This document shows positions 464-64,000 of a stretch of 64,000 nucleotides of DNA, piece by piece (the first letter of the stretch is position 1; each line of letters starts with the position of its first letter). The stretch is from the NCBI GenBank assembly GCA_964518875.1, contig CAZFHI010000008.1:1929-65928 (forward strand), given 5' to 3'. The position numbers and the translations under genes were made by a program. The notes below the pieces were generated by a model. The model saw only the letters and a program-made list of their open reading frames with translations. It did not search any database and was not told where the DNA came from. Source of the stretch: an uncultured Oscillospiraceae bacterium (GTDB lineage: Bacteria > Bacillota > Clostridia > Christensenellales > Aristaeellaceae).

Positions 464-3301
464 CTACCTTATCCTTTCATCCCCTGCTTCAACAAGGCGG
501 TTGTATTCTTCGCGCGTCATAAGCGTTACGCGGGGCTTGGTGCCTTCGCTGGGGCCTACTATGCCGCGGCGCTCCATTTCGTCTACAAGCCTGCCGGCTC
601 TGCCGTAGCCTACGCGCAAAACGCGCTGAAGCATGCTTATTGATGTCTGCCCGGATTCAACCGCCATTTCTATTGCGTCAGGCAAAAGCTCGTCAAATAC
701 TTCAGTATTTTCTGAGGAGTAATAGTCAGGGCCCTTCTTTTCCTGCTTTTTAGCGTCCTCTATATGCTCCATAAGATCCGCGTTATATTCTGTCTGGTTG
801 CGGCTCTTTACATATTCTGTAACAGATTCCACGTCTTTATCCGATATAAAGCAGCCCTGAACGCGCGAAGGCGCAGGAGACGTGCGCGGCATATACAGCA
901 TATCGCCGTAGCCCAAAAGCTTTTCCGCGCCGACAGAATCCAATATGGTTCTGCTGTCCACCTGAGACGTAACCTGAAAAGCTATGCGGCTTGGAATATT
1001 AGCTTTTATAACTCCAGTTATTACGTTTACCGAAGGACGCTGAGTAGCTAAAATAAGGCATATGCCAGCCGCCCTCGCTTTTGCAGTAATGCGTTTTATA
1101 TATTCTTCAACCTCTTTGCCGCTTGTTAAAATTAAATCCGCCATTTCATCTATGATCACAACGATATAAGGCATTTTTTCTTCGCCTGGGTTAAGACGCT
1201 TGTTGTAGCCCGCTATGTTGCGCGCGCCGCTTTTCTGCATGCGCAAATAGCGGTCGTCCATTTCGTCGCACAGCCACTCCAGTGCCGCGGCAGCATCATT
1301 AACGTCTGTAATTACAGGCGAAAGAAGATGCGGGCAGGCGTTATAAGGCTGCAGCTCAACAAACTTAGGGTCAACGAGTATAAGGCGCACCTGATCCGGC
1401 CTTGCGCGGTACAAAAGACTCGTAATTACAGAGTTAATGCATACAGATTTGCCGGAGCCCGTAGCGCCCGCTATTAGCAGGTGCGGCATACTACTTAAGT
1501 CGCATATTATAGGCGTGCCCGCTATGTCCTTTCCAAGGGCTACTGTGGTCGGCGAATTATTGTTTAAAAGCTTTTTAGAAAACAAGACCTCTCTTAAATA
1601 TACGGTTTCCGCCTTGTCATTTGCTACTTCTATGCCTACAAGCGGCGTTCCCGGGATCGGTATCTCCGCGCGCACAGGCGCTTTCGCGAGCAACTCAAGC
1701 GAAAGGTTGTCTAAAACATTTCTTATCTTATTTACGTTTACGCCTTCGCCTAAACGTATGGCAAAGCGGGTTATGGCAGGCCCATGCACAATCTGCTGCA
1801 CAGTCGCTGGAATATTAAAAGAATCCAGCGTCTGTACAAGTTTCTTTGCGCGTTTAACGTCTTCTTCGCTCGTATCTTCTCTGCTGCCTTCAGGACATGA
1901 TGACAGCAGTCTCTCCGGCGGTATGTCGTAGTATTCCGGCACAAACGAAAGCTGTTCTCCGTTTGATTTTAAGTTCCCGCCCGATTTTTCGAATGTTTTC
2001 TTTTTTGGTTTTAAATTGACCGCCGTATTTTCAGCTTTTGGTTCACGCTTTTTGTTTTCTATTTTATTTTCGTTTTTATCTTCTTCAGGCTTGCTGTTTT
2101 CAAAACTTTTTTGTTTGAGATTTGGTGAACATGAAATATCCTGAGCTTCATCAGGCGACGTTTTTTGATCGTCTTTTATACATTCAGATGAATATATCTG
2201 ACTTGTATTATTAGCTGTATAGTTGTTGTCTGCATCTTGTATTGCTTTTTTTATTCCTGATTGCTGCTCGTCTTGCGCTTTATATAATGCGCTTTGTGTC
2301 TGCCGCTGCGCGCGCACGTCGTTTATCATGGAAGCGTTTTCTTTATTAAAATAATTTTGCGAATGTTCATCGTGCTTTTTTATATGACGAGCTGTTTCCT
2401 GACCTGTAAGGTTATAGAAATCGTCCATATTGTCCTCAACAGGTTTAAATCCAAGCTGTTCATCTGTTTTTTCATTGTAAAAAGCGTTTGGATCTATTGC
2501 CGGCGCGCCGAAAAGAGATTCCTGCACAAGCGGAGCGTCCCACGTAACCTGCTTAGACGCTGTGTTTTCCTCAGCTTCATAAACAGGCTGTTTCTGCGTT
2601 GCCGCAGTATTTGCTCCTTCATGTGCATCAGTTTCATTTAAGGGGTCTTTATCTATGCTGTTAACAGCCTGAGCCCGCTTTTTATCGCTAAGCTTCTGTG
2701 CATAGATAATAGGATTAAAGCCTATAAGCGCAAAAAGCTGTGCCGCCGCCGCAATTACTATAAGCATTATTCCGCCCGCTTTGCCAAGCAGTTTCCAAAG
2801 CGGGAACGCTATAAGCATGCCTATCCATCCCCCTCCGGGCAATGGCGTGGCGCGCCCCCCAAACTGCGCATAAGCTGCGCTCAGATAGGCGCCGTAGCTT
2901 GTTGGGTTGGGATGTTTTAAATAGTGAATATTTAAGTTAAGAGTATAGTCCATAAGCGTTCCATAGCCTGTAACGGTGCTTATGAGCGTAATAAAAGTTA
3001 AAATACAAACATATAAAGAAAAACTTAACAAAGCGACTCTTAACGAAGCGCGTCTTTTTGAAGATACAGCAAAAGAAGCGCCCAAGGCTATTAGCAAAAA
3101 AGGCAGCGGCACATTAAAATTGCCTGAAAGGCTTATTACAACGCTTTTAAAGAATGCAAGCGAGCGCGTAGTTGTAGGAGCAGAAATGCCAAGCAGAAAA
3201 CACACGCCTAGGGTTATCATAATAACGGCCATGCAAAGCATAAATACGCCCGCTCTGTCCGTAGAGCGAATATTCTGCTGTGCCTTGCTTCTTGTACTCA
3301 C
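464..3301 (-). CDS. ftsK: DNA translocase FtsK/SpoIIIE
   Basis: 945 aa. N-terminal polytopic membrane region, then a long low-complexity Q/E/K/N-rich linker. C-terminal motor has Walker A GATGSGKSVCIN and Walker B IVVIIDEMADL. A gamma-type winged helix is present (SISMLQRVLRVGYGRAGRLVDEME). The GTG start overlaps the upstream stop by 1 nt. Confidence 0.95.
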   Translation of the reverse strand: MSTRSKAQQNIRSTDRAGVFMLCMAVIMITLGVCFLLGISAPTTTRSLAFFKSVVISLSGNFNVPLPFLLIALGASFAVSSKRRASLRVALLSFSLYVCILTFITLISTVTGYGTLMDYTLNLNIHYLKHPNPTSYGAYLSAAYAQFGGRATPLPGGGWIGMLIAFPLWKLLGKAGGIMLIVIAAAAQLFALIGFNPIIYAQKLSDKKRAQAVNSIDKDPLNETDAHEGANTAATQKQPVYEAEENTASKQVTWDAPLVQESLFGAPAIDPNAFYNEKTDEQLGFKPVEDNMDDFYNLTGQETARHIKKHDEHSQNYFNKENASMINDVRAQRQTQSALYKAQDEQQSGIKKAIQDADNNYTANNTSQIYSSECIKDDQKTSPDEAQDISCSPNLKQKSFENSKPEEDKNENKIENKKREPKAENTAVNLKPKKKTFEKSGGNLKSNGEQLSFVPEYYDIPPERLLSSCPEGSREDTSEEDVKRAKKLVQTLDSFNIPATVQQIVHGPAITRFAIRLGEGVNVNKIRNVLDNLSLELLAKAPVRAEIPIPGTPLVGIEVANDKAETVYLREVLFSKKLLNNNSPTTVALGKDIAGTPIICDLSSMPHLLIAGATGSGKSVCINSVITSLLYRARPDQVRLILVDPKFVELQPYNACPHLLSPVITDVNDAAAALEWLCDEMDDRYLRMQKSGARNIAGYNKRLNPGEEKMPYIVVIIDEMADLILTSGKEVEEYIKRITAKARAAGICLILATQRPSVNVITGVIKANIPSRIAFQVTSQVDSRTILDSVGAEKLLGYGDMLYMPRTSPAPSRVQGCFISDKDVESVTEYVKSRNQTEYNADLMEHIEDAKKQEKKGPDYYSSENTEVFDELLPDAIEMAVESGQTSISMLQRVLRVGYGRAGRLVDEMERRGIVGPSEGTKPRVTLMTREEYNRLVEAGDERIR

Positions 3302-4506
3302 TATTCTCCTTCTTTCTGTATAAGCATCGCTGAAAATATATCTTGTTTATCTATACTTATCATAACGCTGAATTCGCCAAAGGAGTACATAAGTCCTTCC
3401 CCTTCTTCAACGAAATACTGCTCTGCAACGCTGCCTTCAAGCGGCAGCACGGCCAAAGGTTCGCCAAAAGATTTAATTATATCTTGTTTTTTTGTAACAC
3501 CTGTTTTGCAGTTTGCTACTGACATTCTCTTTGCAAGCATGCCGTTCACCGTTGTTTTCCCATCATTTACTATAGGATAAATGTTTCTGAATTCCGGCGC
3601 TTCAAGCACGTAGCGTTCTGAAGAAATATAGCGTTCAGGGTCTGTAAGCTCTTTGTATTTTTCAAGCACTTCCTGTATTGGTTTTCCTATTATGTCAGGC
3701 ACATTTGGAAGCCTGCCCTTTGAAATGTTTTCTTTATCTAAATCAGCGTTATCTGCATTAAGCGCATCGAGTTTTAACAAAGGACTGTTTTCGCTTAAAT
3801 TGAGCATATCCTTAAGCTCATAATAATAAAATGAAAACGCCGCCGATCTGTCGGATAAAAACTTAAATCCCGGCTGAGAATAGCTTATAAATACGCCTGT
3901 TTGCGTAAGTATCGCTCTGTCAAGCGGTACAGGCAGCGCATCTGAAACATCGTAAAAAGACATATTGACAAGCTTGTCTTCAATCCATGCTTCAATTTTT
4001 CCCTGGGCGGAAGCGTTAAATATATTCTTCGCTTCAAAAGGCTCGCCGGTATCGCATAAAAACATAAGCGGTATATATTCATGTCCCCGCAATCCGGATA
4101 ACAGCCTTCCTTCCACAGAAATAAGAACGCTTATAATATACGGTTCTGCTTTCGCGCTCAATATGCACGCTTCGCTTAATATGCTGGTTTCGCTTCCATA
4201 GCCTGATTCGCCCAAAGCAATAAAGCTGTCCACATTGGCCGCCTGTTTTATTGCATAGTTTATTTTCTCTTCCGCCGCTTTATTTTGAATATCCCTTATT
4301 TGCGGATAATCTATTTTTACGTTCCCGCTCGTTTCTTTTATAAATTCAATCCGTGCCTTACTTTTTACATTTGAAGCTATAAGCGGCGCAGGTGAAATAT
4401 ACGGCGTATCAGTATTTTGTTCTTCTTTAATAGACGCTTGCGCCAAAGCCGTTAAAGGCACAAGAATCGCAGTAAATATTATGCACAGGCGTTTTATTGT
4501 CTTCAT
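3301..4506 (-). CDS. Secreted protein of unknown function, DUF4163/DUF3298-like (RsiV/PdaC-N-like) envelope domain
   Basis: 401 aa. Sec signal peptide MKTIKRLCIIFTAILVPLTALAQA. The segment DYPQIRDIQNKAAEEKINYAIKQ resembles the DUF4163/DUF3298 signature as I remember it. Translationally abuts ftsK. Confidence 0.55.
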   Translation of the reverse strand: MKTIKRLCIIFTAILVPLTALAQASIKEEQNTDTPYISPAPLIASNVKSKARIEFIKETSGNVKIDYPQIRDIQNKAAEEKINYAIKQAANVDSFIALGESGYGSETSILSEACILSAKAEPYIISVLISVEGRLLSGLRGHEYIPLMFLCDTGEPFEAKNIFNASAQGKIEAWIEDKLVNMSFYDVSDALPVPLDRAILTQTGVFISYSQPGFKFLSDRSAAFSFYYYELKDMLNLSENSPLLKLDALNADNADLDKENISKGRLPNVPDIIGKPIQEVLEKYKELTDPERYISSERYVLEAPEFRNIYPIVNDGKTTVNGMLAKRMSVANCKTGVTKKQDIIKSFGEPLAVLPLEGSVAEQYFVEEGEGLMYSFGEFSVMISIDKQDIFSAMLIQKEGE

Positions 4507-4598: not shown

Positions 4599-5819
4599 TT
4601 AATTATAAACGGGGCCTATAAGCGCCTTGGCGCATGGGATATGCAGCATTTCAGACGCCGCATGCACGTCAGACCTTGTAACGGAGTCTATGTTGTTTAA
4701 AGTCTCAGACAGGCTTATATATTTTTTAAGGCTTATTTCCTGCTCTCCCAGGTCGTGCATGCGGTGCATAAGGCTCTCCTCAGCTATTACCACAGCTGTT
4801 TTAACCTGTACCTTGGCGTAATCAAGTTCCTCCTCCGTTACGCCGTCCGTTTTAAGCTTTCTAAGCTGTTCATATATTTCGCTTTCGACTTTCGCTATAT
4901 TTTCCGGCCTGCAGGCTGCGTAAACAATAAAATCGCCTATATAAGGGTATGTGGTATAGCTCGAATACACCTGATAAGCGAGCGCGCGCTCTTCCCTTAC
5001 GCTCTGGAAAAGCCTTGATGAATTTCCCCCGCCAAGTATGGTTGAAAGAATGGACATAGTGTATGCTCTTTTATCGCCTTCAGCCACGCCTTCAAATCCA
5101 AGGCATATATGCGCCTGTTCAGTATCCTTTTTGATATACAGCTTTTTATGTTCATAAAGAAACTTATTTTCAGGGTAAGCCGCTTCGGTGCCCTGTTCCC
5201 AGCAGGAAAAGCACCGCTCTATTTTTGATTTTATTTTTTCTTTATCAAATTTCCCAGCTACTACTACAAGCGCGTTGTTTGCTACATAATATTTGCTCCT
5301 GAAGTCATTTAACGACTGCGTTTTATATTTAAGCAGCGCTTCCTTTTCACCTAATATGGTTTCAGACAGGCTTCCCTCATACAGCGCTTTATTTATAAGG
5401 TCAAAAACGCTTTCTTCCGGCGAATCCTCAACCATGGCGATTTCTTCAGCTATTACGCGTTTTCCTTTTTTAAACGAGTCCTCGTCTAATACAGGGTTCA
5501 GCGCGATATCCGCTAAAAGCTCTATGCAGCTTTCTATTTCATCAGGCAAAACCCTTGCGTAATACACAGTGCTCGTGCGGCTTGTAGCTGCGTTTATCTG
5601 CCCTCCGAGAGCGTCCATCTGCTTTGCAATCTGTTTTGCGTTCCTCGTAAAAGTACCCTTAAACGCCATATGCTCCATGAAGTGCGAAAGGCCGTTTTCA
5701 TCTCTGCTTTCAAGCATTGAGCCCGCCTTAACCCATACGCCTGCGGCGGCTGAGTAGCTCTTGCTGTCAAGATCCAGTATTACTTTAAGGCCGTTTGGCA
5801 AGCTGTAGCGTTCCGTCAT
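4599..5819 (-). CDS. M16-family (pitrilysin/insulinase-like) zinc peptidase
   Basis: 406 aa with the inverted zinc motif HFMEHMAFKGT (HxxEH). Located immediately downstream of pnp, as in many Firmicutes. Confidence 0.88.
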   Translation of the reverse strand: MTERYSLPNGLKVILDLDSKSYSAAAGVWVKAGSMLESRDENGLSHFMEHMAFKGTFTRNAKQIAKQMDALGGQINAATSRTSTVYYARVLPDEIESCIELLADIALNPVLDEDSFKKGKRVIAEEIAMVEDSPEESVFDLINKALYEGSLSETILGEKEALLKYKTQSLNDFRSKYYVANNALVVVAGKFDKEKIKSKIERCFSCWEQGTEAAYPENKFLYEHKKLYIKKDTEQAHICLGFEGVAEGDKRAYTMSILSTILGGGNSSRLFQSVREERALAYQVYSSYTTYPYIGDFIVYAACRPENIAKVESEIYEQLRKLKTDGVTEEELDYAKVQVKTAVVIAEESLMHRMHDLGEQEISLKKYISLSETLNNIDSVTRSDVHAASEMLHIPCAKALIGPVYN

Positions 5820-15668: not shown

Positions 15669-17534
15669 ATGAAAAAACTGTCCGCAATTATTATGAGCAT
15701 TGCTCTCTTGCTGTCCATCATACCGGCTTTTGCCGCAGTAAGCGGCGAATTTACCGGTAAAGCTACTGGCTTCGGGGATGAAGTCAGCGTTACGCTCACA
15801 ATCAAAGACGATAAAATCGTAAGCGTTTCAGCTGAAGGCGCAAGCGAAACCCAGGGAATAGGCTCCAACGCTGTTGAAATACTTCCGGAAAAGATAAGCG
15901 AAACCGGCAGCATAGGCGTAGAAACTGTAAGCGGCGCAACCATTACTTCAGAAGCGCTCCTGGAAGCCGCAGGAAACGCATTATCCAGCGCCGGGCTTAA
16001 CCCTGACGACTACATGCAGAAATCCTCTGACGAAGCTAAAAAAGAACCCGTCGTGCTTGACTGCGACATAGTTGTAGTAGGCGCAGGCGGCGCTGGAATG
16101 ACGGCTGCAATAAGCGCCGCAGATCAAGGCAAAAAAGTAATACTCATAGAGAGCCAATCCATGGTTGGCGGCAACACGGTAAGGGCGACCGGCGGCATGA
16201 ACGCGGGCAAAACTCCAGTGCAGGATACAAACGATTTTAATGAAACAGCCGGAGTAGAAAAAACGCTTGGAAAAGCCAAGGATTTTCCTGACAACGCCCG
16301 CATACATGAACTTACGCAAATCGTTCAGAAGCAGTTTGACGAATATAAAGCAAATCCGGAAGGCTATTTCGATTCCGCAGAACTTATGCAGCTTGACACG
16401 CTTATAGGCGGCAAGGGCATCAACAATCCTGAGCTCGTGAAGACGTTCGCAGAAAGCAGCGCATCAGCAGTAGAGTGGCTGAATGAAAACAGCATTGCGC
16501 TTACTAATGTTTCAAGCCTTGGCGGCGCCTCTGTAAAGCGCACTCACAGGCCCGTAGGCGAAGACGGAAAAACAATATCCATAGGCAGCTATCTGGTGCC
16601 GCGTCTTGAAGAAAACGTGAGAGAAAGAAATATAGAGCTTATTCTTAACCTTGAAGCCGTAAGCCTTATAGAAAATGACGGCAGAATCACAGGCGTTAAG
16701 GCAAAAGGAGATCTCGGCGACGACGTAACAATAAACGCGGGCGCTGTAATATTATCCACAGGCGGTTTTGGCGCAAACCTTGATATGGTTGAACAGTTAA
16801 AACCTGAGCTTAAAGGCTTTATGACGACCAACGCTTCCGGCGCTCAGGGCGCTGGAATTAAAATGGCCCAAGAAGCTGGCGCCGCGGTTGTAGATATGAA
16901 AGAAATACAAATACACCCAACCGTTCAGTTTGATACTTCCGCCCTTATAACAGAAGGCCTGCGCGGAGACGGCGCAATACTTGTAAACGCGGAAGGCAGG
17001 CGCTTTACAGACGAAGTCGCCACTCGCGATGTAGTATCCGCAGCTGAAATAGCGCAGCCCGGCAGCTTCAGCTACCTTATAGTAGATAAAAACATGGCTG
17101 ACGCTTCAAGCGTAATTGCAGGATATATCAAAAAAGGCTTTACAACGGAAGGCGAAAGCGTAGCGGATCTGTCAGATAAGCTCGGTATGGACGCAGCGGT
17201 TCTGCAAAGCACGCTTGACGCCTGGAACGAATGTGTAAAAAGCGGAGAGGACAAAGAGTTCGGCAGGACAAGCTTTACAAACCCGCTTGACACAGCGCCA
17301 TATTATGCCATAAAGGTAACCGCCGGCATTCATCACACCATGGGCGGCCTTAAAATAGACGAAAACACCCATGTGCTTAATGAAAGCGGTCAAGCTATAC
17401 CGGGCCTTTTCGCAGCCGGCGAAGTAACAGGCGGAATACACGGCGCAAACCGTCTTGGCGGCAACGCCGTCGCCGACATAGTTGTATTCGGCAGGATAGC
17501 GGGCATGCAGGCAGCCGAAAGCTTAGATAAATAA
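15669..17534 (+). CDS. Secreted FMN_bind-domain + FAD-dependent flavoprotein reductase (soluble fumarate/urocanate-reductase-like)
   Basis: 621 aa. Signal peptide ...IIPAFA/AV. FMN_bind-like module ending VETVSGATITS. Dinucleotide fold VVVGAGGAGMTAA. LRGDGAILVN and GGIHGANRLGGNAV signatures. Confidence 0.8.
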   Translation: MKKLSAIIMSIALLLSIIPAFAAVSGEFTGKATGFGDEVSVTLTIKDDKIVSVSAEGASETQGIGSNAVEILPEKISETGSIGVETVSGATITSEALLEAAGNALSSAGLNPDDYMQKSSDEAKKEPVVLDCDIVVVGAGGAGMTAAISAADQGKKVILIESQSMVGGNTVRATGGMNAGKTPVQDTNDFNETAGVEKTLGKAKDFPDNARIHELTQIVQKQFDEYKANPEGYFDSAELMQLDTLIGGKGINNPELVKTFAESSASAVEWLNENSIALTNVSSLGGASVKRTHRPVGEDGKTISIGSYLVPRLEENVRERNIELILNLEAVSLIENDGRITGVKAKGDLGDDVTINAGAVILSTGGFGANLDMVEQLKPELKGFMTTNASGAQGAGIKMAQEAGAAVVDMKEIQIHPTVQFDTSALITEGLRGDGAILVNAEGRRFTDEVATRDVVSAAEIAQPGSFSYLIVDKNMADASSVIAGYIKKGFTTEGESVADLSDKLGMDAAVLQSTLDAWNECVKSGEDKEFGRTSFTNPLDTAPYYAIKVTAGIHHTMGGLKIDENTHVLNESGQAIPGLFAAGEVTGGIHGANRLGGNAVADIVVFGRIAGMQAAESLDK

Positions 17535-27615: not shown

Positions 27616-29646
27616 ATGGCTGTGCCCGCAAGAGATATTTCACTGTTAATGCCTTCGCTCATTACGCTTTACAACTTTATTTTTTGTATATTGGCATCTA
27701 ACGCCTTAACGCAAAAGCCCATATTCGGCGGCGCTCTTTTTATGGTCGCTCAGGTTGCCGGCCTTGCGGGTAAATATATATTCAGCCACAGCTACAGAAA
27801 CCTATTAAACAAAAAAGAGCGCGTAATCGTATATGTGCTTACGTTGCTTTGTTTTTTTGCAAGCATAGCTTTAATTTTGTTTTATCCAAAAAGAAGCGTT
27901 CTGCCTGAAGCGTGGGTTGTTTTTGCCATATCGCTCGCTACGTGGCTCCGCTCTCTAGGCTTAAGCCGCCTTATAGATTCCCCTATAACGTACAAAATGT
28001 CAGGCGTGCAGAAGGGCATTCGAATGGCGGAAATATCCGTACTGTTTTTAGCTGTGGTAACAGCCGTTCTGTTTTCTACTCAAAACGCGCAGACAGCCTG
28101 GTACATCACAGGGGCGTTCGCATTAAACTCTCTGGCGGAAGCCGTTACGCTTTCAAAATACAAAAGGTTTGATTATAAAGGCAGTCAGGTAAATACTGAC
28201 GCCGTACAAAAGGCAAGCAGTATAAACGCTTACAATGTGTTCGTGCGTCTTGTGGTGTTTTCCGCGGCGGCGCTGCAGATTACGCAAATACTCATTTTTT
28301 CTTTTATAGCTACAACGGCAGACACCGTCTTTTTCGCTTTTCTTATAGCGATACTTACAAGCTTTGTTATAGCGCAGATAGTCCGCTTCTACATGGCGCA
28401 AAAAAAGGAAAGCGATGTAAGCAATCTGCTGCTTTTTGGTCTGTCCCTCTGGGTAATAAGCCTTTTAATGTTCTGGCACCAGATCAACAGCAGCAATCAG
28501 GTAATGCGTTATATATCGCTCGCCGCTTGCAGCGCCGGAATACTTTTGAGCATATCCGCGCTGTCCCGTCTTGAAAAAAACATGCAGGAAGTGCTGCTTT
28601 TTGCAGTAGACAATGAGGTAATGAAATCTTTGCGGCAGACAAAGTCCATAGTGATAGCCTTCGCTTCTTTAATAGGGCAGATGTTAGCTCTTATAGGTCT
28701 CGCCCTTTTAAGCTTCTTTGAAAACGATAAATTCCTAAGCATGGAAAACGTGTTTCAACCGACGCTTATACTGCCCGCTCTCGTTTTAGCGGCGGCCGCG
28801 GCGATTTCAGCGCTGCGTTTTCCTCTTACAAAGCAGCACTTAAACAAGCTGCATAATTATATGCTGCTCAAGCAAAACGGCGAAACCAACGCGCCTTTGC
28901 AGAAACAGCTCGAAAACGTTATTGTAAAAGTAAGCAGGAGACGCTACGGCTTAAAGCTTATAGGCAAATTTGTAAGCCTTTTTATGCGTGTGCAGATTGA
29001 AGGAGAAGAAAAAGTTCCTACGGGCGACGGCATAAGCAATGTATTTATATGCAACCACGGAGAGCTTTACGGGCCGGTCTGCTGCTATATATTTATGCCT
29101 TTCCCGTTCAGGCCGTGGATTACGGATAGAATGATGGATAAAAGCCTTACTGTTAAACATATATACGAAGGCACGTTCATGAGACAAAATTGGATGCCTA
29201 AATCCTGGCAGATGCCGATGGCTAAGTTTGTCGCCCCAATAATAAACTGGGCCATGCATTCAGCCTACGGCATACCTGTATACAAGGACAATCCTAAACT
29301 TTTAATTAAAACCTTCCGCGAAACCGCCATATGCATGCAGGCGGGAGACGATATTTTAATATTTCCTGAAAACCCTGCGGCAGAAAACAGCAATGATAAT
29401 TTGTATTTAAGAAGCGGCATAGGCGAATTTTTTAAAGGCTTTACGCTTGTAGCGCCCATATATTATCAGAAAACGGGCAAGTGCTGCCGCTTTATACCAG
29501 TTTATGCAGATAAGAAGCGCCGCAAACTAAGCTTTGGCGACTACGTGCAGTACAACCCGGATAACAGCTCCGATATGGAAAGCAATCGCATTTGCGATGA
29601 AGTGCGCAGCGCCATACTTGATTTAGCGGAAGGCGGAGAAAAATGA
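27616..29646 (+). CDS. Fusion protein: N-terminal polytopic membrane domain (~10-11 TM, MFS/LplT-like by topology only) plus C-terminal PlsC/LPLAT-like acyltransferase domain
   Basis: 676 aa. Residues ~1-440 are hydrophobic helices. The C-terminal ~230 aa carry acyltransferase-like blocks VFICNHGELYGP (HX4D position occupied by G) and ILIFPENPAA (FPEGTR-like). Confidence 0.55.
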   Translation: MAVPARDISLLMPSLITLYNFIFCILASNALTQKPIFGGALFMVAQVAGLAGKYIFSHSYRNLLNKKERVIVYVLTLLCFFASIALILFYPKRSVLPEAWVVFAISLATWLRSLGLSRLIDSPITYKMSGVQKGIRMAEISVLFLAVVTAVLFSTQNAQTAWYITGAFALNSLAEAVTLSKYKRFDYKGSQVNTDAVQKASSINAYNVFVRLVVFSAAALQITQILIFSFIATTADTVFFAFLIAILTSFVIAQIVRFYMAQKKESDVSNLLLFGLSLWVISLLMFWHQINSSNQVMRYISLAACSAGILLSISALSRLEKNMQEVLLFAVDNEVMKSLRQTKSIVIAFASLIGQMLALIGLALLSFFENDKFLSMENVFQPTLILPALVLAAAAAISALRFPLTKQHLNKLHNYMLLKQNGETNAPLQKQLENVIVKVSRRRYGLKLIGKFVSLFMRVQIEGEEKVPTGDGISNVFICNHGELYGPVCCYIFMPFPFRPWITDRMMDKSLTVKHIYEGTFMRQNWMPKSWQMPMAKFVAPIINWAMHSAYGIPVYKDNPKLLIKTFRETAICMQAGDDILIFPENPAAENSNDNLYLRSGIGEFFKGFTLVAPIYYQKTGKCCRFIPVYADKKRRKLSFGDYVQYNPDNSSDMESNRICDEVRSAILDLAEGGEK

Positions 29647-31586
29647 CCGCCGTACCTGTTTTTTTGGCGTTTGAAGTATGCGGGGTAACGCTTGTAAACC
29701 AGCTTATTCCCAAAAAAAGCCCTCTGTGCAGAGTATGGATAGGCTTAGTCTTTGGCATAATGATTATGATGTGGCTGCCTGCGCTTGTAGCGTTTTTCAT
29801 TCCGTTCTCGGTTGTCTCAAATCTTATAGCGTTAGGAATAGCCGCCGTAACGGCAGGTTCAGCTGTATTTATTTGTAAACAAAGGCCTTCCTTTGCGCTT
29901 AGCGAAAAGGACAGAGGAGATTTGAAAGCCATAGCTCTTGTAGCCGTGCCTTTGACTGCTCTTTCCGTGTACCTGCTGCATACGCATATTCTGCGCCCTG
30001 TTGAAGGCAGCCTGCACGCGGGGCAGTCTACCTATGGCGATCTGCCCCTGCACCTGTCAATAGCTGCTTCGCTTAGAAACAAGCAGCTTCCGCCTATATA
30101 CAGCATATACCCGAACGAAAGACTGTCTTATCCGTTTTTAATGGACAGCCTTTCCACAAGCTTTATGCTCTTTGGATCCAGCCTACGTTTCAGCATGATA
30201 TTCCCCGCAGCCGTTATGATGCTGCTCGTTTTTGCCGGGTTTATGCTGTTGGCTTTAAGCTTAAGCGAAGAAAGGCGCGCGGCGGCGCTGGCGTCCTTGC
30301 TGCTTTTTATAAACGGCGGATTGGGCTTTATATATTCGCTGGATATGGCGGGCGTAAGCTTAGGGAGCGCTGGAAGCAACGAGCTTAAGTACGGCGTATG
30401 GTTAGACAGGCTTAGTACAATATTTAACGGCTGGTACCAGACCCCTGCAAACCACGCGGAGTTTAACACGTATAACCTCAGATGGAGCAATATAATAGTC
30501 GATATGTTCGTTCCGCAGCGGACTTTCTTAGCGGGATGGGTATTTTTGCTCCCCTGCATATATTTAATGTATGATTTTATCAAATCAAAAAATCGCGATG
30601 TCAGGCAGCTTGTGCTGCTCGGAACCATTGCAGGCGGCATGCCGCTTATACATACGCACAGCTTTTTAGCGCTTGTGCTGCTGAGCTTCGCATGGTTTTT
30701 ATGGGATATTATAAAAAACAAGAATATAAAGCCCTGGCTTATATATATAGCGGTAGCGGGCGCATTGTCCCTGCCTCAGCTGTTTCTTTTCACATTCAAG
30801 CAGTCGTCCGCGAGCGAACACTTTTTAAATCTGCATTTTAACTGGGTAAACAACGACGGAGGCTTAAAAGACCCTTATATATGGTTCTACGTAAAGAACG
30901 TAGGGATTCCTTTTTTGCTTATTATATTGTCTCTTTTTGAAAAAAACAAAAAACACCGTTTTATATATTTCGGCGCCTTTATGATATTTGTTCCTGCGGA
31001 GCTTATACGCTTTCAACCCAATGTGTACGACAACAACAAGCTTTTCTATGTCTGGTACGCGCTCTGCACTATCCCTATAGCGGAATACGCCTTTTCAGTT
31101 TTTGATGCTTTAAAAAAATTTAAGTCGCGCAAAATAATCGCAGTTCTTTGCTGCCTTATGTTCTTTTTAACAGGCTCGCTTTCTATAATACGCGAAGTTA
31201 AAAGCGACTACCAGATGTTTTCAAAGGAAGATGTGGAACTATCCCAATGGGTAGAAGAAAACACCAGCGACGACGCTCTCTTTTTAAGCGGCACTCAGCA
31301 CATAAACCCCGTTTCATCGCTTGCAGGAAGGAAGATAGTGTGCGGACCCGCCATGTGGCTTTACTACCACGGCTTTGATACCGCTGAAAGAGAAAAAGAC
31401 ATACAGCTTTTTTACTCTTCGCCGTCTTTTGGCAATGATATTTTAAAAAAATACGGCGTCGACTACATACTGTTTACGCCGTTTGAAGCTTCCAGATACG
31501 GCGTAAATAAAGACGATCTTGCGTCGGCGTACAAAACACTTTATGACAAAGGCAGCACGGCCGTATTTAAGGCAGAATATGATTGA
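29643..31586 (+). CDS. Large polytopic membrane protein, GT-C-fold glycosyltransferase-like (ArnT/PMT/YfhO-type topology). Family not resolved.
   Basis: 647 aa with at least 12 predicted TM helices. Loop motif STYGDLPLHLSIAASL follows the early helices. Soluble C-terminal region (YYHGFDTAEREKDIQLFY...KKYGVDYILFTPFE). ATGA overlap with the upstream gene. Confidence 0.4.
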   Translation: MTAVPVFLAFEVCGVTLVNQLIPKKSPLCRVWIGLVFGIMIMMWLPALVAFFIPFSVVSNLIALGIAAVTAGSAVFICKQRPSFALSEKDRGDLKAIALVAVPLTALSVYLLHTHILRPVEGSLHAGQSTYGDLPLHLSIAASLRNKQLPPIYSIYPNERLSYPFLMDSLSTSFMLFGSSLRFSMIFPAAVMMLLVFAGFMLLALSLSEERRAAALASLLLFINGGLGFIYSLDMAGVSLGSAGSNELKYGVWLDRLSTIFNGWYQTPANHAEFNTYNLRWSNIIVDMFVPQRTFLAGWVFLLPCIYLMYDFIKSKNRDVRQLVLLGTIAGGMPLIHTHSFLALVLLSFAWFLWDIIKNKNIKPWLIYIAVAGALSLPQLFLFTFKQSSASEHFLNLHFNWVNNDGGLKDPYIWFYVKNVGIPFLLIILSLFEKNKKHRFIYFGAFMIFVPAELIRFQPNVYDNNKLFYVWYALCTIPIAEYAFSVFDALKKFKSRKIIAVLCCLMFFLTGSLSIIREVKSDYQMFSKEDVELSQWVEENTSDDALFLSGTQHINPVSSLAGRKIVCGPAMWLYYHGFDTAEREKDIQLFYSSPSFGNDILKKYGVDYILFTPFEASRYGVNKDDLASAYKTLYDKGSTAVFKAEYD

Positions 31587-36899: not shown

Positions 36900-38690
36900 T
36901 TATTCCGCTTCAGCTATCGTATTGCCAAATTCCATTCCAGAGGCAAAGCACCAGATGAGGTATTCGGCGTAAGCGCCGTTGATGTTGCCCACAACTTCGC
37001 CTGCGGCATAAAGCCCCGGGACCGGCTGCTCGTTTACATCCAGCACTTCAAAGCTATCCGAAACGTTTACGCCGCCCAAAGATGTGGCATAGCGCGCAAC
37101 CGTTTGCAGAATATAGAACGGGCCGTCCGTTGACATTTCAGGAGTATTGGCGCGTTTAAAAGGATCTTTATTGCCGGCGGCTGCGTTTTCGTTGTAGTTC
37201 TTTACGGTTTCCGCAAGCTTTTCACCGTCAAGTCCCAATGCCGCAGCGGCTTCTTCAAGCGTGTCGCCCTTTACAAACTTGGTAACGCCTGCGCCGTTTT
37301 CTTCAAGCAGCTGCGCTATCCTGTCTTTTTTAAGCACGGTGTTTGCGTCCAAAACTTCTTCGCTTAAGTCGAAGCCTTCCTGATCCATTACAATATAGAG
37401 CCTGCCGTCTTTTGACTTGTACATTGAGGCAAGCGCTATATCAAGCTCGTCGCCGTCTTCATTTACAACGCGCTCGCAGTCGCTGTTTACCGCGATGGCG
37501 CCCGTCTTTTTAAACAGCTGCGCAACCAAATAGTGAATATGTATACCATAACCGGGTTCTGTTTCAACGCCAAAGTGCTTGGTCGCGAGTTTGTCCATGT
37601 TGAACATAGGAACGCCTATTTCTTTCATCATTATGTGCCCGTCGCCTGTTGCGCCAACAGGTCCGTAATATATTACGCGGTCAAGTATTGAAGTATCAGA
37701 AATAAGATCCGTGTTGTTGCCGTAGCCGCCCGTCGCCATAAGAACTTTGTTGGCGTTTATAGTAATTTTCTGGCCGTCCTTGCCCACAGCTTCAACGCCT
37801 GCAACAGTGTCGCCGTCCATAATTAAGTGTGTGGCGCGTGTGTTAAGCATAACGGGTATGTTTTCATCAAGCACGCGTTCATACACAGTGTTTACAGCCT
37901 TTACCGCTCTGCCTTCGCAGCCATAGTGAGCAATAGGCTCGCCTTCAACAGGCTCCCCTGTTATGCCTACGCCTTCGCTCTTAAGCCACTCAATAGTAGG
38001 CGTTGAAAGCCTTGCCTGCATCATGGTTAAGCGCGCATTGTTCTTGAACTTTCCTATTCTTGACAAATCTAAAAACAGTTCTTCTATGTTGCGTTCAGTT
38101 TCATCAGGGTCATCGGATACTACATATCCTGGCATGCCGCCCCCTGCCATGGCAGTCGCGCCGCCTATCGCGGGCATCTTTTCTATGACCAGGACGTCTT
38201 TAACGCCGTTTTCATTAGCGGACAGCGCCGCTGATAATCCCGCCGCGCCTGCGCCCACTATAACGACATTGCAGTCTATGGTTTCTTCAGGCTTGGCTTC
38301 TTCTGAAGCTTCTTTTTCAGCGAATATAACTTCATCCGTTCCGCCCGCTTCCTTAAGCGCAGCTTCTGCAGCGGCAAGAACAGCCTCGGAAGAAACGGTG
38401 CAGCCTGCAAGCGTGTCGACAGAGAGCGTCTGCTGCTCCACTATTGTTTCCGGCAGCTGCTCGATAGCGGTAGAGCCTATGCCGTCTGTTTCATTGGGGC
38501 CTTCAGCCTTAACAGAAATGATAGCGTCATCGCTTACTTCTACCGTAACCGTTACATCGCCGCCAAAGCCGTCCGCCGTTGCAGTATAGGTTCCCGCATT
38601 GTACTTGTTCTCTGCCAGCGCAGTACATGCAAGCATCATGCAGAGCGCTAACACAAGCGCCGTCAGTCTTTTGGTTCTAATCGTCAACAT
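36900..38690 (-). CDS. Secreted or lipid-anchored FMN_bind-domain + FAD-dependent oxidoreductase, divergent paralog of 15669-17534
   Basis: ATG at 38690 with RBS AAGGAGGGA; the ORF track extends to 38726. Signal peptide MLTIRTKRLTALVLALCMMLACTALA. FMN_bind-like module ending VDTLAGCTVSS. VVIVGAGAAGLSAA dinucleotide fold. Lacks the RGxGA and HGANRLGGN signatures of paralog 1. Confidence 0.7.
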   Translation of the reverse strand: MLTIRTKRLTALVLALCMMLACTALAENKYNAGTYTATADGFGGDVTVTVEVSDDAIISVKAEGPNETDGIGSTAIEQLPETIVEQQTLSVDTLAGCTVSSEAVLAAAEAALKEAGGTDEVIFAEKEASEEAKPEETIDCNVVIVGAGAAGLSAALSANENGVKDVLVIEKMPAIGGATAMAGGGMPGYVVSDDPDETERNIEELFLDLSRIGKFKNNARLTMMQARLSTPTIEWLKSEGVGITGEPVEGEPIAHYGCEGRAVKAVNTVYERVLDENIPVMLNTRATHLIMDGDTVAGVEAVGKDGQKITINANKVLMATGGYGNNTDLISDTSILDRVIYYGPVGATGDGHIMMKEIGVPMFNMDKLATKHFGVETEPGYGIHIHYLVAQLFKKTGAIAVNSDCERVVNEDGDELDIALASMYKSKDGRLYIVMDQEGFDLSEEVLDANTVLKKDRIAQLLEENGAGVTKFVKGDTLEEAAAALGLDGEKLAETVKNYNENAAAGNKDPFKRANTPEMSTDGPFYILQTVARYATSLGGVNVSDSFEVLDVNEQPVPGLYAAGEVVGNINGAYAEYLIWCFASGMEFGNTIAEAE

Positions 38691-38760
38691 AGCAAATCCC
38701 TCCTTAGAGCTTAATTGACAATACAATTGTAGTATAATACACTTTTAGTGATATGTATGT

Positions 38761-39477
38761 TTGTTTTCAGACAAAGAGGGGGATTTTTTGTTAAAAGCGC
38801 TGCCTATAATTAAAAAGACAAAATTATTTTCAGGGCTTTCAGACACTGAAATTGAATCTTTAATCGCTAAAATGGACAGCAGGATTATATCCTTTAAAAA
38901 AGGAGATATAATATATTCCGCAAGCGTCAAATCTAACGGTATATTTATAGTGCTTGAAGGAAGCGTGATTTTAGAAAAGAACGATATCTGCGGCAACCGC
39001 TGCGTAATATCCGACTTGTCAGTCTGCGGGATTTTTGGCCTTCCATATGCGGTGCTTCCAAACGCTTCAAGAATGATGGACGCCACGGCCGCCCAGGACA
39101 GTATAGTTTTGTTTCTTAACATTAACGCTGTTCTGCAGGATAATGAAATTATGGCGCGGTATCCGGATTTTTTACGCAACCTGCTTATAATTATCGCTTC
39201 AAAGCTTGCAAGCGAAGTAGAGCATCCTTACAAAAACCGCACCACGCGCATGAAGCTTTTGTCTTTTCTCTGCATGAAGGCAAGAAAAGCGGGGCGCAAA
39301 TCTTTTGACATAGTATTTACCCGCCAGGAATTAGCGGATTACCTCGGCGTTCAGCGCTCCGCCATGTGCACGGAGCTCGCTCGCCTTAAACAGGATGGTC
39401 TTATAGACTTTAACCGCAATCACTTTACTGTTTTTTTTGACGAGCCTTTTAATATTAAAAACAGCAGTCAAAAATAA
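38761..39477 (+). CDS. Crp/Fnr-family transcriptional regulator
   Basis: cNMP-binding-like N-domain (LFSGLSDTEIESL..., KGDIIYSA) and C-terminal HTH TRQELADYLGVQRSAMCTELARLKQDGLI. No N-terminal Cys cluster. Start is uncertain: TTG at 38761 per the track, or TTG at 38788 just after GAGGGGGA. Confidence 0.85.
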   Translation: MFSDKEGDFLLKALPIIKKTKLFSGLSDTEIESLIAKMDSRIISFKKGDIIYSASVKSNGIFIVLEGSVILEKNDICGNRCVISDLSVCGIFGLPYAVLPNASRMMDATAAQDSIVLFLNINAVLQDNEIMARYPDFLRNLLIIIASKLASEVEHPYKNRTTRMKLLSFLCMKARKAGRKSFDIVFTRQELADYLGVQRSAMCTELARLKQDGLIDFNRNHFTVFFDEPFNIKNSSQK

Positions 39478-62317: not shown

Positions 62318-62770
62318 ATGGCAACATTAATTCCATTTAACCACAGGAGAGATATATGGGATGGCAGCAGCCTGAACAGCATACATAACATGCTTGACGA
62401 TTTCTTTTCTTCAGAATATCCAACAATGAGGAATCTGGCAAGCGATACATTTAAAATGGACATTCAGGAAAGAGAAAAAGACTACATCATAGAAGCGGAG
62501 CTTCCAGGCGTAACAAAGGACGACATCAAACTGTCAATGGATAACGATTGTCTTACAATTGCAGTTGTAGTAACCGAAAAAAGCAAACAGGAAGACGAAA
62601 AGAAAAACTACGTTCATAAGGAACGCCGTTACAGCTCTATGAGCCGCAGCGTTTACCTTGACGATGTAAACAAGAACGAAATAAGCGCTAAGCTTGACAA
62701 CGGCATTTTAAGCATAACCGTTCCAAAGCAGATAAAGGACGAAAATGTAAAAACAATTAACATAGACTAA
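62318..62770 (+). CDS. Small heat-shock protein, Hsp20/alpha-crystallin family
   Basis: 150 aa from ATG at 62318 (RBS AAAGGAG; the ORF track starts at GTG 62309). Alpha-crystallin core FKMDIQEREKDYIIEAELPGVTKDDIKL...GILSITVPK. Confidence 0.94.
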   Translation: MATLIPFNHRRDIWDGSSLNSIHNMLDDFFSSEYPTMRNLASDTFKMDIQEREKDYIIEAELPGVTKDDIKLSMDNDCLTIAVVVTEKSKQEDEKKNYVHKERRYSSMSRSVYLDDVNKNEISAKLDNGILSITVPKQIKDENVKTINID

Positions 62771-62810: not shown

Positions 62811-62970
62811 ATGTCTTTGTCTTTGTTTTTGCATTACGTCATTTCTTATTAAAACTACATATCAGCTTATTTTAAAACGATAAGCGCCATAAAGCAAATT
62901 ACAGCGCAACAAAAAAAGTAAACACAATAAAACTAATCCCCTATTGTTTTTAGGGTATTAGCTTTACTGC

Positions 62971-63003
62971 AAAGAAAGCAATAAGCCCCTTCCGGGGCTT
63001 ATT
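62971..63003 (-). terminator. Terminator of the repeat-protein gene
   Basis: Minus-strand AAUAAGCCCC-GGAA-GGGGCUUAUU followed by GCUUUCUUU. Confidence 0.8.
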
Positions 63004-63013
63004 GACTTTAAAA

Positions 63014-64000
63014 TTATTCAGCTACTGTAAGCTGTAAATCCATTCTGTTCTCATAAGCTTCTTTTAGCGCTCCCAGAATATCGCCGTGAGCGTCTTTAAG
63101 TGACATAGTCGCAGAAGACGTTACGTCAGCAAGCATAGCCTTTTCTTCTTCAGAAAGAGCATCATACTTCGCCTGATCTTCTTCATTTTTCTGCTCCGGC
63201 TTAAGCGGACGGCCGTTTGAAGCTGCGTACTTGTTAAACCAGTCTTCAATTTCTTCCACTGTCTTTCCAGCAAAGAAATCCTGATAGGCGTCCATCTGGC
63301 TGCTCCATGTTCCTGTAGCAAGCTTGTAGCCTTCACCGCGTTCGCGCTTGGTAGCCCATGTTAATATTTTTTCGCTGAAGCTTTCTTCGGTTATCTCCGG
63401 CGCGCTTTCATCTACCTTGCCATCGTGATCAAGATCGCTGTTATAGGGTTCGCTTCCAGGATAACCTGAGAAGTGCGGCATTGAAGGGCCGTCATAGTTT
63501 GGAGAAGCAACTTCAAGCTGATCTATGTAAGAATCCAGCACTTTGCCATCCTTGTCAAATAAAAGCGCCGCGAATACTTCGTTAATGCTGTAAACCCTTG
63601 TACCAAGATCGTCCTTGCCAGGGCCAAGCCTGCCGGACGTATTTAAGCTGATGCCTATTGAAGAAGCGTTCTCAAGGTCCTTAAGAGGCACCCTGTTTTC
63701 ATATGCCTTGCGGTATGAGCCTATTATATCCCCATGCGGGTCCTTAAGAGACATAGTCGCAGAAGACGTTACATCCGCCAGCATCGCCTTTTCTTCATCA
63801 GACAGAGCGGCATACTTTTTGACGTCCTCTTCCTTTTCCATGGTTTCTACGAGCGGACGTCCGTTCAGATCTGAAGTATATTTGCTGAACCATTCTTCTA
63901 CTTCGTCTACGGTTTTCCCAACAAACGCTTTCTGGAAACCGTCCATCTCCTGTACCCATGTTCCTGAATTCATCTTATATGAATCGCCGCGCTCGCGCTT
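63014..64000 (-). CDS. 3' part of a gene for a modular repeat protein (216-aa repeat unit; FMN_bind-like motif in each unit). The gene continues beyond the window.
   Basis: The frame stays open to nt 64000 (KRERGDSYK precedes the track's Met at 63973). Two copies of GTW..M D..Q.F.GKTV.E.E.WF.KY...NGRPL....K.EED..KY.ALS.EEKAMLADVTSSATMSLKD.HGDI.G....AYENR lie 648 nt apart, and the KRERG..YK..(S/T)GTW junction also repeats. Confidence 0.55.
   Translation of the reverse strand, partial: KRERGDSYKMNSGTWVQEMDGFQKAFVGKTVDEVEEWFSKYTSDLNGRPLVETMEKEEDVKKYAALSDEEKAMLADVTSSATMSLKDPHGDIIGSYRKAYENRVPLKDLENASSIGISLNTSGRLGPGKDDLGTRVYSINEVFAALLFDKDGKVLDSYIDQLEVASPNYDGPSMPHFSGYPGSEPYNSDLDHDGKVDESAPEITEESFSEKILTWATKRERGEGYKLATGTWSSQMDAYQDFFAGKTVEEIEDWFNKYAASNGRPLKPEQKNEEDQAKYDALSEEEKAMLADVTSSATMSLKDAHGDILGALKEAYENRMDLQLTVAE

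Follow-up and report, generated by a model that had tools for sequence, protein, structure and literature searches.

A secreted protein with a canonical FMN_bind domain and two expanded repeats related to an apbE-associated family: a candidate three-flavin electron carrier

The DNA analysed here (a stretch of 64,000 nucleotides, the window) ends inside a gene that we have followed beyond its border. On the minus strand, an open reading frame comes in from past the window end at 64000 and closes with a stop codon at 63014-63016. The 328 codons inside the window, together with the stop, are the 3' part (63014..64000, minus strand) of a gene of 543 codons whose product is secreted, the 5' 215 codons lying beyond the window. 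This gene is the end of a transcription unit: an intrinsic-terminator-like hairpin (62979..63004, minus strand; 11-bp stem, 6 GC pairs) stands 10 nt past the stop codon, and an hsp20 open reading frame on the plus strand (62318-62770) faces the gene in convergent orientation. Exact-match scans of genome and metagenome contigs for the window end gave no match, and the full gene was obtained from a 3,077-nt public contig (L009) reached through the neighbouring hsp20 product. This contig is 100% identical to window positions 62900-64000 and continues beyond the window end. The full open reading frame, preceded by a ribosome-binding site (AGGAGG) before its start codon, encodes in order a predicted Sec signal peptide (MKKTFSIIMVLSMLLSIGAFA/QE, manual criteria), an FMN_bind domain, a linker that is modelled with low confidence by AF2, and two repeats. 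The canonical FMN_bind domain (residues 30-101, Pfam E 4e-15) is encoded outside the window, contains DVEGVSGATITS and carries the motif VSGAT. Three threonines are candidate FMN acceptors, namely Thr87 in the FMN_bind domain, Thr297 in the first repeat unit and Thr513 in the second. We consider it very likely that the 543-aa protein is a secreted covalent flavoprotein.

The two repeat units, each of about 216 aa, lie on the minus strand at a spacing of 648/651 nt. Unit 1 is represented in the window by its helical C-terminal half (63674..64000, minus strand), which comprises KRERG..Y..GTW, GKTV.E, NGRPL and the motif loop, while its beta half is outside. Unit 2 is complete (219 aa; 63017..63673, minus strand). 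Following the same minus strand, it has three long beta strands (63509-63664, AF2 model), continues with a first insertion (63377-63508, hhalign to the shorter units described below), a helical part between the two insertions and a second insertion (63131-63241, hhalign to short units), after which the motif loop comes next, and ends with a final helix (63044-63079, AF2 model). The DVTSSATMS motif is encoded at 63749..63775 in unit 1, where 63755-63757 is the codon of the candidate acceptor Thr297, and at 63101..63127 in unit 2, where 63107-63109 encodes Thr513 (both on the minus strand). The first insertion of unit 2 also holds an Asp-rich loop, DLDHDGKVDES (63404..63436, minus strand), whose EF-hand/dockerin-like letters, a resemblance at the level of sequence only, make it a possible Ca2+-binding loop. 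Its family consensus is D-E-N-H-D-x-K-V-D-G, and the loop is absent or degenerate in unit 1 of the window's clade.

An earlier, sequence-only reading of this DNA had proposed tandem repeats of about 216 aa, each with a 27-nt stretch encoding DVTSSATMS, and a KRERG..YK..GTW junction recurring at the window edge, and all three proposals hold. Units 1 and 2 of the full protein align over 201 residues with 53% identity, far more than chance would give, and direct DNA repeats at the 648/651-nt spacing extend over 92 nt (85% identity), 70 nt (70%) and 45 nt (73%). The two 27-nt stretches both translate to DVTSSATMS and have 25 of their 27 bases in common, with an exact core of 23 nt. The junction occurs twice, at fragment residues 1-15 (63956-64000) and 218-232 (63305-63349). 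The same reading expected more units upstream, and here it was mistaken: since the open reading frame on L009 is complete, the protein has two long units and none further, and apart from the beta half of unit 1 the upstream part encodes only the FMN_bind domain and the signal peptide. We also asked if the repeat could have arisen from chance resemblance, low sequence complexity or faulty assembly. The probability of this is practically nil, and we rule it out on the identity of the two units, on the identical sequence of an independent contig (L009) and on the existence of 1382 homologues.

These 1382 proteins match the window fragment, and the best 120 of them are 540-575 aa long; nearly all full-length proteins among those 120 share the arrangement of a signal or lipobox, an FMN_bind domain and two repeats. 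They are named either "FMN-binding protein" or "hypothetical protein", and their hosts are Clostridia, Christensenellales, Sedimentibacter and a Phascolarctobacterium MAG. A lipobox or hydrophobic signal was found, by manual criteria, at the start of 104/104 full-length homologues. Together with the Sec signal in the full open reading frame, this settles in favour of export a point that the sequence-only reading had left to the full-length protein. The repeat pairs are always fused to one to three canonical FMN_bind domains; in some variants two or three canonical domains precede the pair, and others have a single repeat. Within the repeat, where the compared sequences share 50-60% identity, mean column identity reaches 64%. 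Lys, Arg, Tyr, Trp and His residues are invariant, and conservation outside the motif is found in TKRERG..Y, W, NGRPL and D.HG. A repeat-like unit was also seen in a 334-aa protein (P0212), next to a LysM domain and in permuted form, the helical half with VDVTTGATMSL coming first and the beta half last.

Across 209 repeat units the motif reads L-A-D-V-[TV]-[STA]-[SGAT]-A-T-M-S-L-x-D-x-H-G. The Asp is present in 207 units, the Ala in 208, the Thr in 208 (with Ser in the remaining one) and the following Ser in all 209; the A-T pair is found in 208/209, and a Thr or Ser at the acceptor position is kept in every one of the 209. Position -3 is S, T or A and position -2 is S, G, A or T, with Gly at -2 in 25% of the units. 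The N-terminal domains of these proteins that Pfam recognises with significance are equally tolerant, with A, S or T at -3 and G, S, N or T at -2. The motif used by ApbE has been given as D-x-x-[S/T]-G-A-[S/T], with about 50% of flavinylation remaining after a Gly-to-Ala change and lower flavinylation after an A-to-V change (PMC12052999). The D-V-T-S-S-A-T of the window protein, present twice, departs from this motif by Gly to Ser only. The proposal that DVTSSATMS fits the ApbE pattern is thus upheld, with a near-invariant D, A and T across the 209 units. Together with the homology to a shorter family and the apbE linkage of that family, described below, this makes it likely in our judgement that both long repeats are covalently flavinylated.

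The window holds two further proteins with such motifs, both exported, fumarate/urocanate-reductase-like and built of FMN_bind and FAD_binding_2. The first (15669-17534, plus strand) has VSGAT; the second (36900-38726, minus strand), which adjoins a Crp-family regulator (38761-39477), has an unusual LAGCT, and this AGCT motif sits in a genuine FMN_bind domain. Elsewhere in the window, two large overlapping plus-strand open reading frames drew our attention: 27616-29646 (676 aa) has no Pfam match, and 29643-31586 (647 aa) has a borderline Dpy19 match only.

The sequence-only reading had named PF04205 and structure searches as a check on the repeat, and by these searches the repeat is not detectably an FMN_bind domain. 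Sequence and profile searches of Pfam, NCBIfam and the PDB, with the fragment and with a 16-unit profile, returned no significant match for the repeat. PF04205 (gathering score 22 bits) does not match the window fragment, and on full-length proteins it matches residues 30-101 only. When 16 diverse repeat units were compared with Pfam, FMN_bind was weakly matched by one of them (E 0.0052). Global hhalign of the repeat against FMN_bind gave no collinear match; matches that are collinear but sub-threshold (E about 1e-3) appeared in local mode only, where they cover the motif with the final helix (E between 4e-4 and 4e-3) and the beta2-beta3 hairpin (E about 0.1). With matches of this kind, the refuting condition set by the sequence-only reading, a lack of HMM or structural similarity to FMN_bind, is formally a borderline case. 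Some units came near the threshold of DUF5780 (PF19092) with their helical half, for example at residues 256-319 of the homologue P0010 (27.5 bits, the cut-off being 28.2). We set these matches aside as too weak and unannotated, DUF5780 being a family of no known function.

The fold itself is predicted with confidence: the AF2 model of unit 2 has a pLDDT of 92.3, and the full-length model of a 90%-identical homologue (P0003) a pLDDT of 91 and a pTM of 0.82. Foldseek of the unit 2 model against the PDB found no FMN_bind structure, the best match being IscU at E 0.07. We judged the matches of the repeat model to IscU and LptE meaningless (E >= 0.07), and rejected MHC class I matches of the full model for an rmsd above 20 A. 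In the positive control, Foldseek of the full-length P0003 model, the N-terminal domain alone matched 8P2B/8P2A (TM 0.84-0.87). When the modelled repeat is set beside Pfam FMN_bind (PF04205, also called FMN-bind1; NqrC, RnfG, PplA, and the crystal structures 3O6U, 8P2A and 8P2B), the order of elements is the same, that is beta-beta-beta, helices, motif loop and helix. Both are extracytoplasmic, both have the acceptor motif D-x-x-[STA]-[GSAT]-A-T-x-[ST] with an amphipathic helix after it, and one genuine FMN_bind copy is found in the same protein as the repeats. The repeats differ in failing HMM and Foldseek recognition, in being about 2.5 times larger with strands of 13-16 residues, and in having a 10-residue hairpin (MSLKD.HG) between the Thr and the next helix, which the canonical domain lacks.

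A link between the repeat and ApbE comes from a second family. The repeat profile, searched against 1.84 billion representatives, led to shorter tandem-unit lipoproteins with units of about 145 aa, which occur singly or in arrays of 2, 4, 6 or 8 and have no Pfam domain. The short unit is homologous to the window's repeat over its whole length (hhalign probability 99.5%, E 2e-22, 141 columns). Therefore, the long repeat is a short unit enlarged at two places, by about 35 aa after beta3 and by about 30 aa before the motif. The acceptor Thr or Ser is kept in 44/44 short units, within [AS][SG][CVA]T, including canonical ISGAT and ISGAS. Compared with Pfam, 16 short units had FMN_bind as their sole recurrent weak match, and the best single match was DUF2271. 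DUF2271 and DUF3570 were identified as ApbE substrates via apbE association and later validated (PMC8238504).

A pattern scan for the short family matched at least 596 species genomes, and its gene neighbourhood was surveyed in 79 species-representative genomes (loci L010-L088). An apbE gene lies within 6 kb of the short-family gene in 54 of the 79, always on the same strand and just downstream, and no other neighbour recurs around the gene in this set. Sedimentibacter saalensis DSM 13558 (L037) and Helcococcus kunzii ATCC 51366 (L012) are examples of species in which the two genes adjoin. In both loci that were examined individually (L089 and L091), apbE directly follows on the same strand. 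At L091, EetA-like and EetB (PF07456) genes also follow, beside an Rnf operon, EetB being an FAD exporter (PMC9973259); at L089, DsbD_TM, TrxR-like and thioredoxin-like genes lie upstream. A family that lacks any other Pfam domain has little reason to stand directly upstream of apbE if it is not an ApbE substrate.

This association bears directly on another reading of the window protein, in which the N-terminal FMN_bind domain alone is flavinylated and the repeats serve as accessory modules without a redox role, for ligand, metal or cell-wall binding or for reductase docking, so that the conserved A-T-M-S-L-x-D-x-H-G would be structural or ligand-binding. The lack of an HMM or fold match between the repeat and any flavin-binding domain is in keeping with such modules, as is the replacement of the motif Gly by Ser in the window protein. 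In the short family, too, the place at which Ala is preferred by ApbE is mostly taken by Cys or Val, and it is the A-to-V change that lowers flavinylation (PMC12052999); finally, the conservation beyond the motif and the possible Ca loop would suggest a specific binding site. The acceptor residue, however, is retained without exception in long and short units alike, canonical SGAT variants exist in both families, and the homologous short family, with no other Pfam domain to account for it, is placed directly upstream of apbE in most of the genomes surveyed. On balance, we find the accessory-module explanation unlikely.

Around the long-repeat genes themselves, the context is less telling. ApbE, Ndh2 or Eet genes had been suggested as neighbours to look for next to the window gene, and neither it nor its close homologues have one. 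In seven distinct contexts (the window and the loci of six homologues), apbE was beside the long-repeat gene in none. There is no apbE in the window or, by tblastn, within 10 kb of three homologue loci, nor did one turn up in a scan of the window open reading frames of at least 300 aa, which took in all except 3301-4506 and 4599-5819. Likewise, no ndh2, eetA, eetB, dmkA, dmkB, fmnA or fmnB was found in the window open reading frames scanned or at the homologue loci. No neighbour is common to the seven contexts, which makes the long-repeat gene an orphan, and Rfam found no upstream riboswitch at three homologue loci. The source organism must nonetheless have an ApbE, because the two exported FMN_bind reductases and the canonical domain of the protein need one. 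Two long-repeat loci have [FeFe]-hydrogenase-like and 2Fe-2S thioredoxin-like genes nearby (L092, 955-2783, directly upstream on the same strand; L093, 273-4954), which may be chance. Directly downstream of the P0003 gene, there is a 1151-aa open reading frame without a Pfam match (L001, 6844-10299; also in L002-L004), which is absent from the window, the convergent hsp20 gene being there in its place.

An orphan gene with its own terminator is typical of a self-contained function, and this leads to a further possibility: the flavinylated repeat pair could be a catalytic unit, a new extracellular flavoenzyme fed with electrons by the N-terminal domain, whose covalent FMNs would act on a small-molecule or metal substrate held by the conserved pocket. 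The mean column identity of 64%, unusually high for an electron-transfer module, and the insertions that are specific to the long repeat would also suit an enzyme. We nevertheless consider a catalytic unit very improbable, given that the sequence and Foldseek searches revealed no similarity to any enzyme, that no substrate-related neighbour genes are conserved, and that SaFMN3 and CbFMN4, which are characterised multi-FMN proteins, act as carriers (PMC10339131). In its most specific form, which is improbable as well, the repeats would be a two-flavin catalytic platform combining a core of the FMN-bind2 type (see below), a Ca-loop insertion and a pocket made of K-R-x-R-G..Y, N-G-R-P and D-x-H-G. 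If that were true, the family, with its approximately 1,400 sequence clusters in anaerobic Bacillota, would count as a new class of secreted flavoenzymes.

The reading that we favour, to which we give a probability of roughly two in three, is that of a Sec-exported, soluble 543-aa protein with three flavins, in which expanded versions of an apbE-associated repeat serve an electron relay. After export by Sec, ApbE would transfer FMN to Thr87, Thr297 and Thr513. Each 216-aa repeat would be the domain of about 145 aa enlarged by the two insertions, and the pair would most likely pack as one rigid, pseudo-symmetric two-flavin body. We infer this rigidity from the pTM of 0.82, the low-confidence N-terminal linker and the precedent of FMN-bind2. 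The canonical domain could then swing on its flexible linker to trade electrons with donors in the membrane or with soluble reductases, so that the three flavins would relay electrons from a membrane donor to extracytoplasmic acceptors. Candidate acceptors include the two exported FMN_bind and FAD_binding_2 reductases of the same window. The sequence-only reading had envisaged an exported, multi-flavinylated variant of FMN_bind proteins. The core of this proposal holds, though by another route: it is supported by the export signal, a canonical FMN_bind domain in the same protein, the motif and homology to an apbE-linked family. Recognition of the repeat itself as FMN_bind was not confirmed.

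Under the favoured reading, flavinylation censuses based on Pfam score about 1,400 relatives of this protein as mono-flavin or hypothetical, though they probably carry three flavins, and no Pfam model exists for the short apbE-linked family, which at least 596 species genomes contain. With both domain types recognised, the predicted set of multi-flavin electron carriers in anaerobic Firmicutes would grow, and a domain so far described from structure models only would gain an HMM definition. In addition, a flexible FMN-bind1 domain joined to a rigid expanded pair could serve as a testable model for how electrons pass from a flavin that moves to a two-flavin unit that stays in place.

Among known systems, the closest parallel is FMN-bind2 (Huang, Meheust, Barquera, Light 2024, mSystems; PMC11334425). 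This extracytosolic domain of about 160 aa has no InterPro identifier and was found by BLAST; it occurs in two or four copies, and in six in one case (for example, two copies in NTW96865.1 and six in WP_312031774.1). It has long strands and, relative to FMN-bind1, insertions that lengthen the sheet, one of them between beta3 and alpha1, and its pairs are predicted to pack sheet-to-sheet as a pseudo-symmetric two-flavin unit (PMC11334425). The short family agrees with this in its even tandem copies, its lack of a Pfam match and its link to apbE; judged by the published description, the short ApbE-associated domain of about 145 aa is probably this FMN-bind2 subtype. The window's repeat also has two copies, no Pfam or NCBIfam match and an insertion after beta3. 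Its unit is longer, however, at 216 aa against about 160, with two further insertions and the extra MSL.D.HG hairpin after the Thr; moreover, its repeats are fused to FMN-bind1 and its gene does not adjoin apbE. We found no published description of such a 216-aa expanded unit fused to FMN-bind1. The 216-aa repeat would be an expanded variant of a domain type already described, with its own flavinylation predicted.

The window protein can also be compared with the multi-flavinylated proteins described previously (Meheust et al., 2021, eLife, PMC8238504; SaFMN3 and CbFMN4, Tong et al., 2023, PMC10339131), which are likewise secreted, have several ApbE sites and have been proposed, or in some cases shown, to carry electrons. 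Its N-terminal domain is 34-35% identical to 8P2A/8P2B, with a TM of 0.84-0.87. The known proteins, however, are strings of FMN_bind domains that Pfam recognises, whereas the window protein has only one such domain, so that a census based on Pfam would score it as mono-flavinylated. A last comparison is with PplA of Listeria. None of the genes of the Listeria EET locus (Ndh2, EetA, EetB, DmkA, DmkB, FmnA, FmnB) is near the window gene, and the two proteins differ in domain type and in the number of sites (three in the window protein, two in PplA). Nevertheless, both are exported with more than one predicted covalent FMN, and a role as an extracellular electron shuttle is plausible for the window protein. 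It is probably a hidden member of the multi-flavin proteins of extracellular electron transfer.
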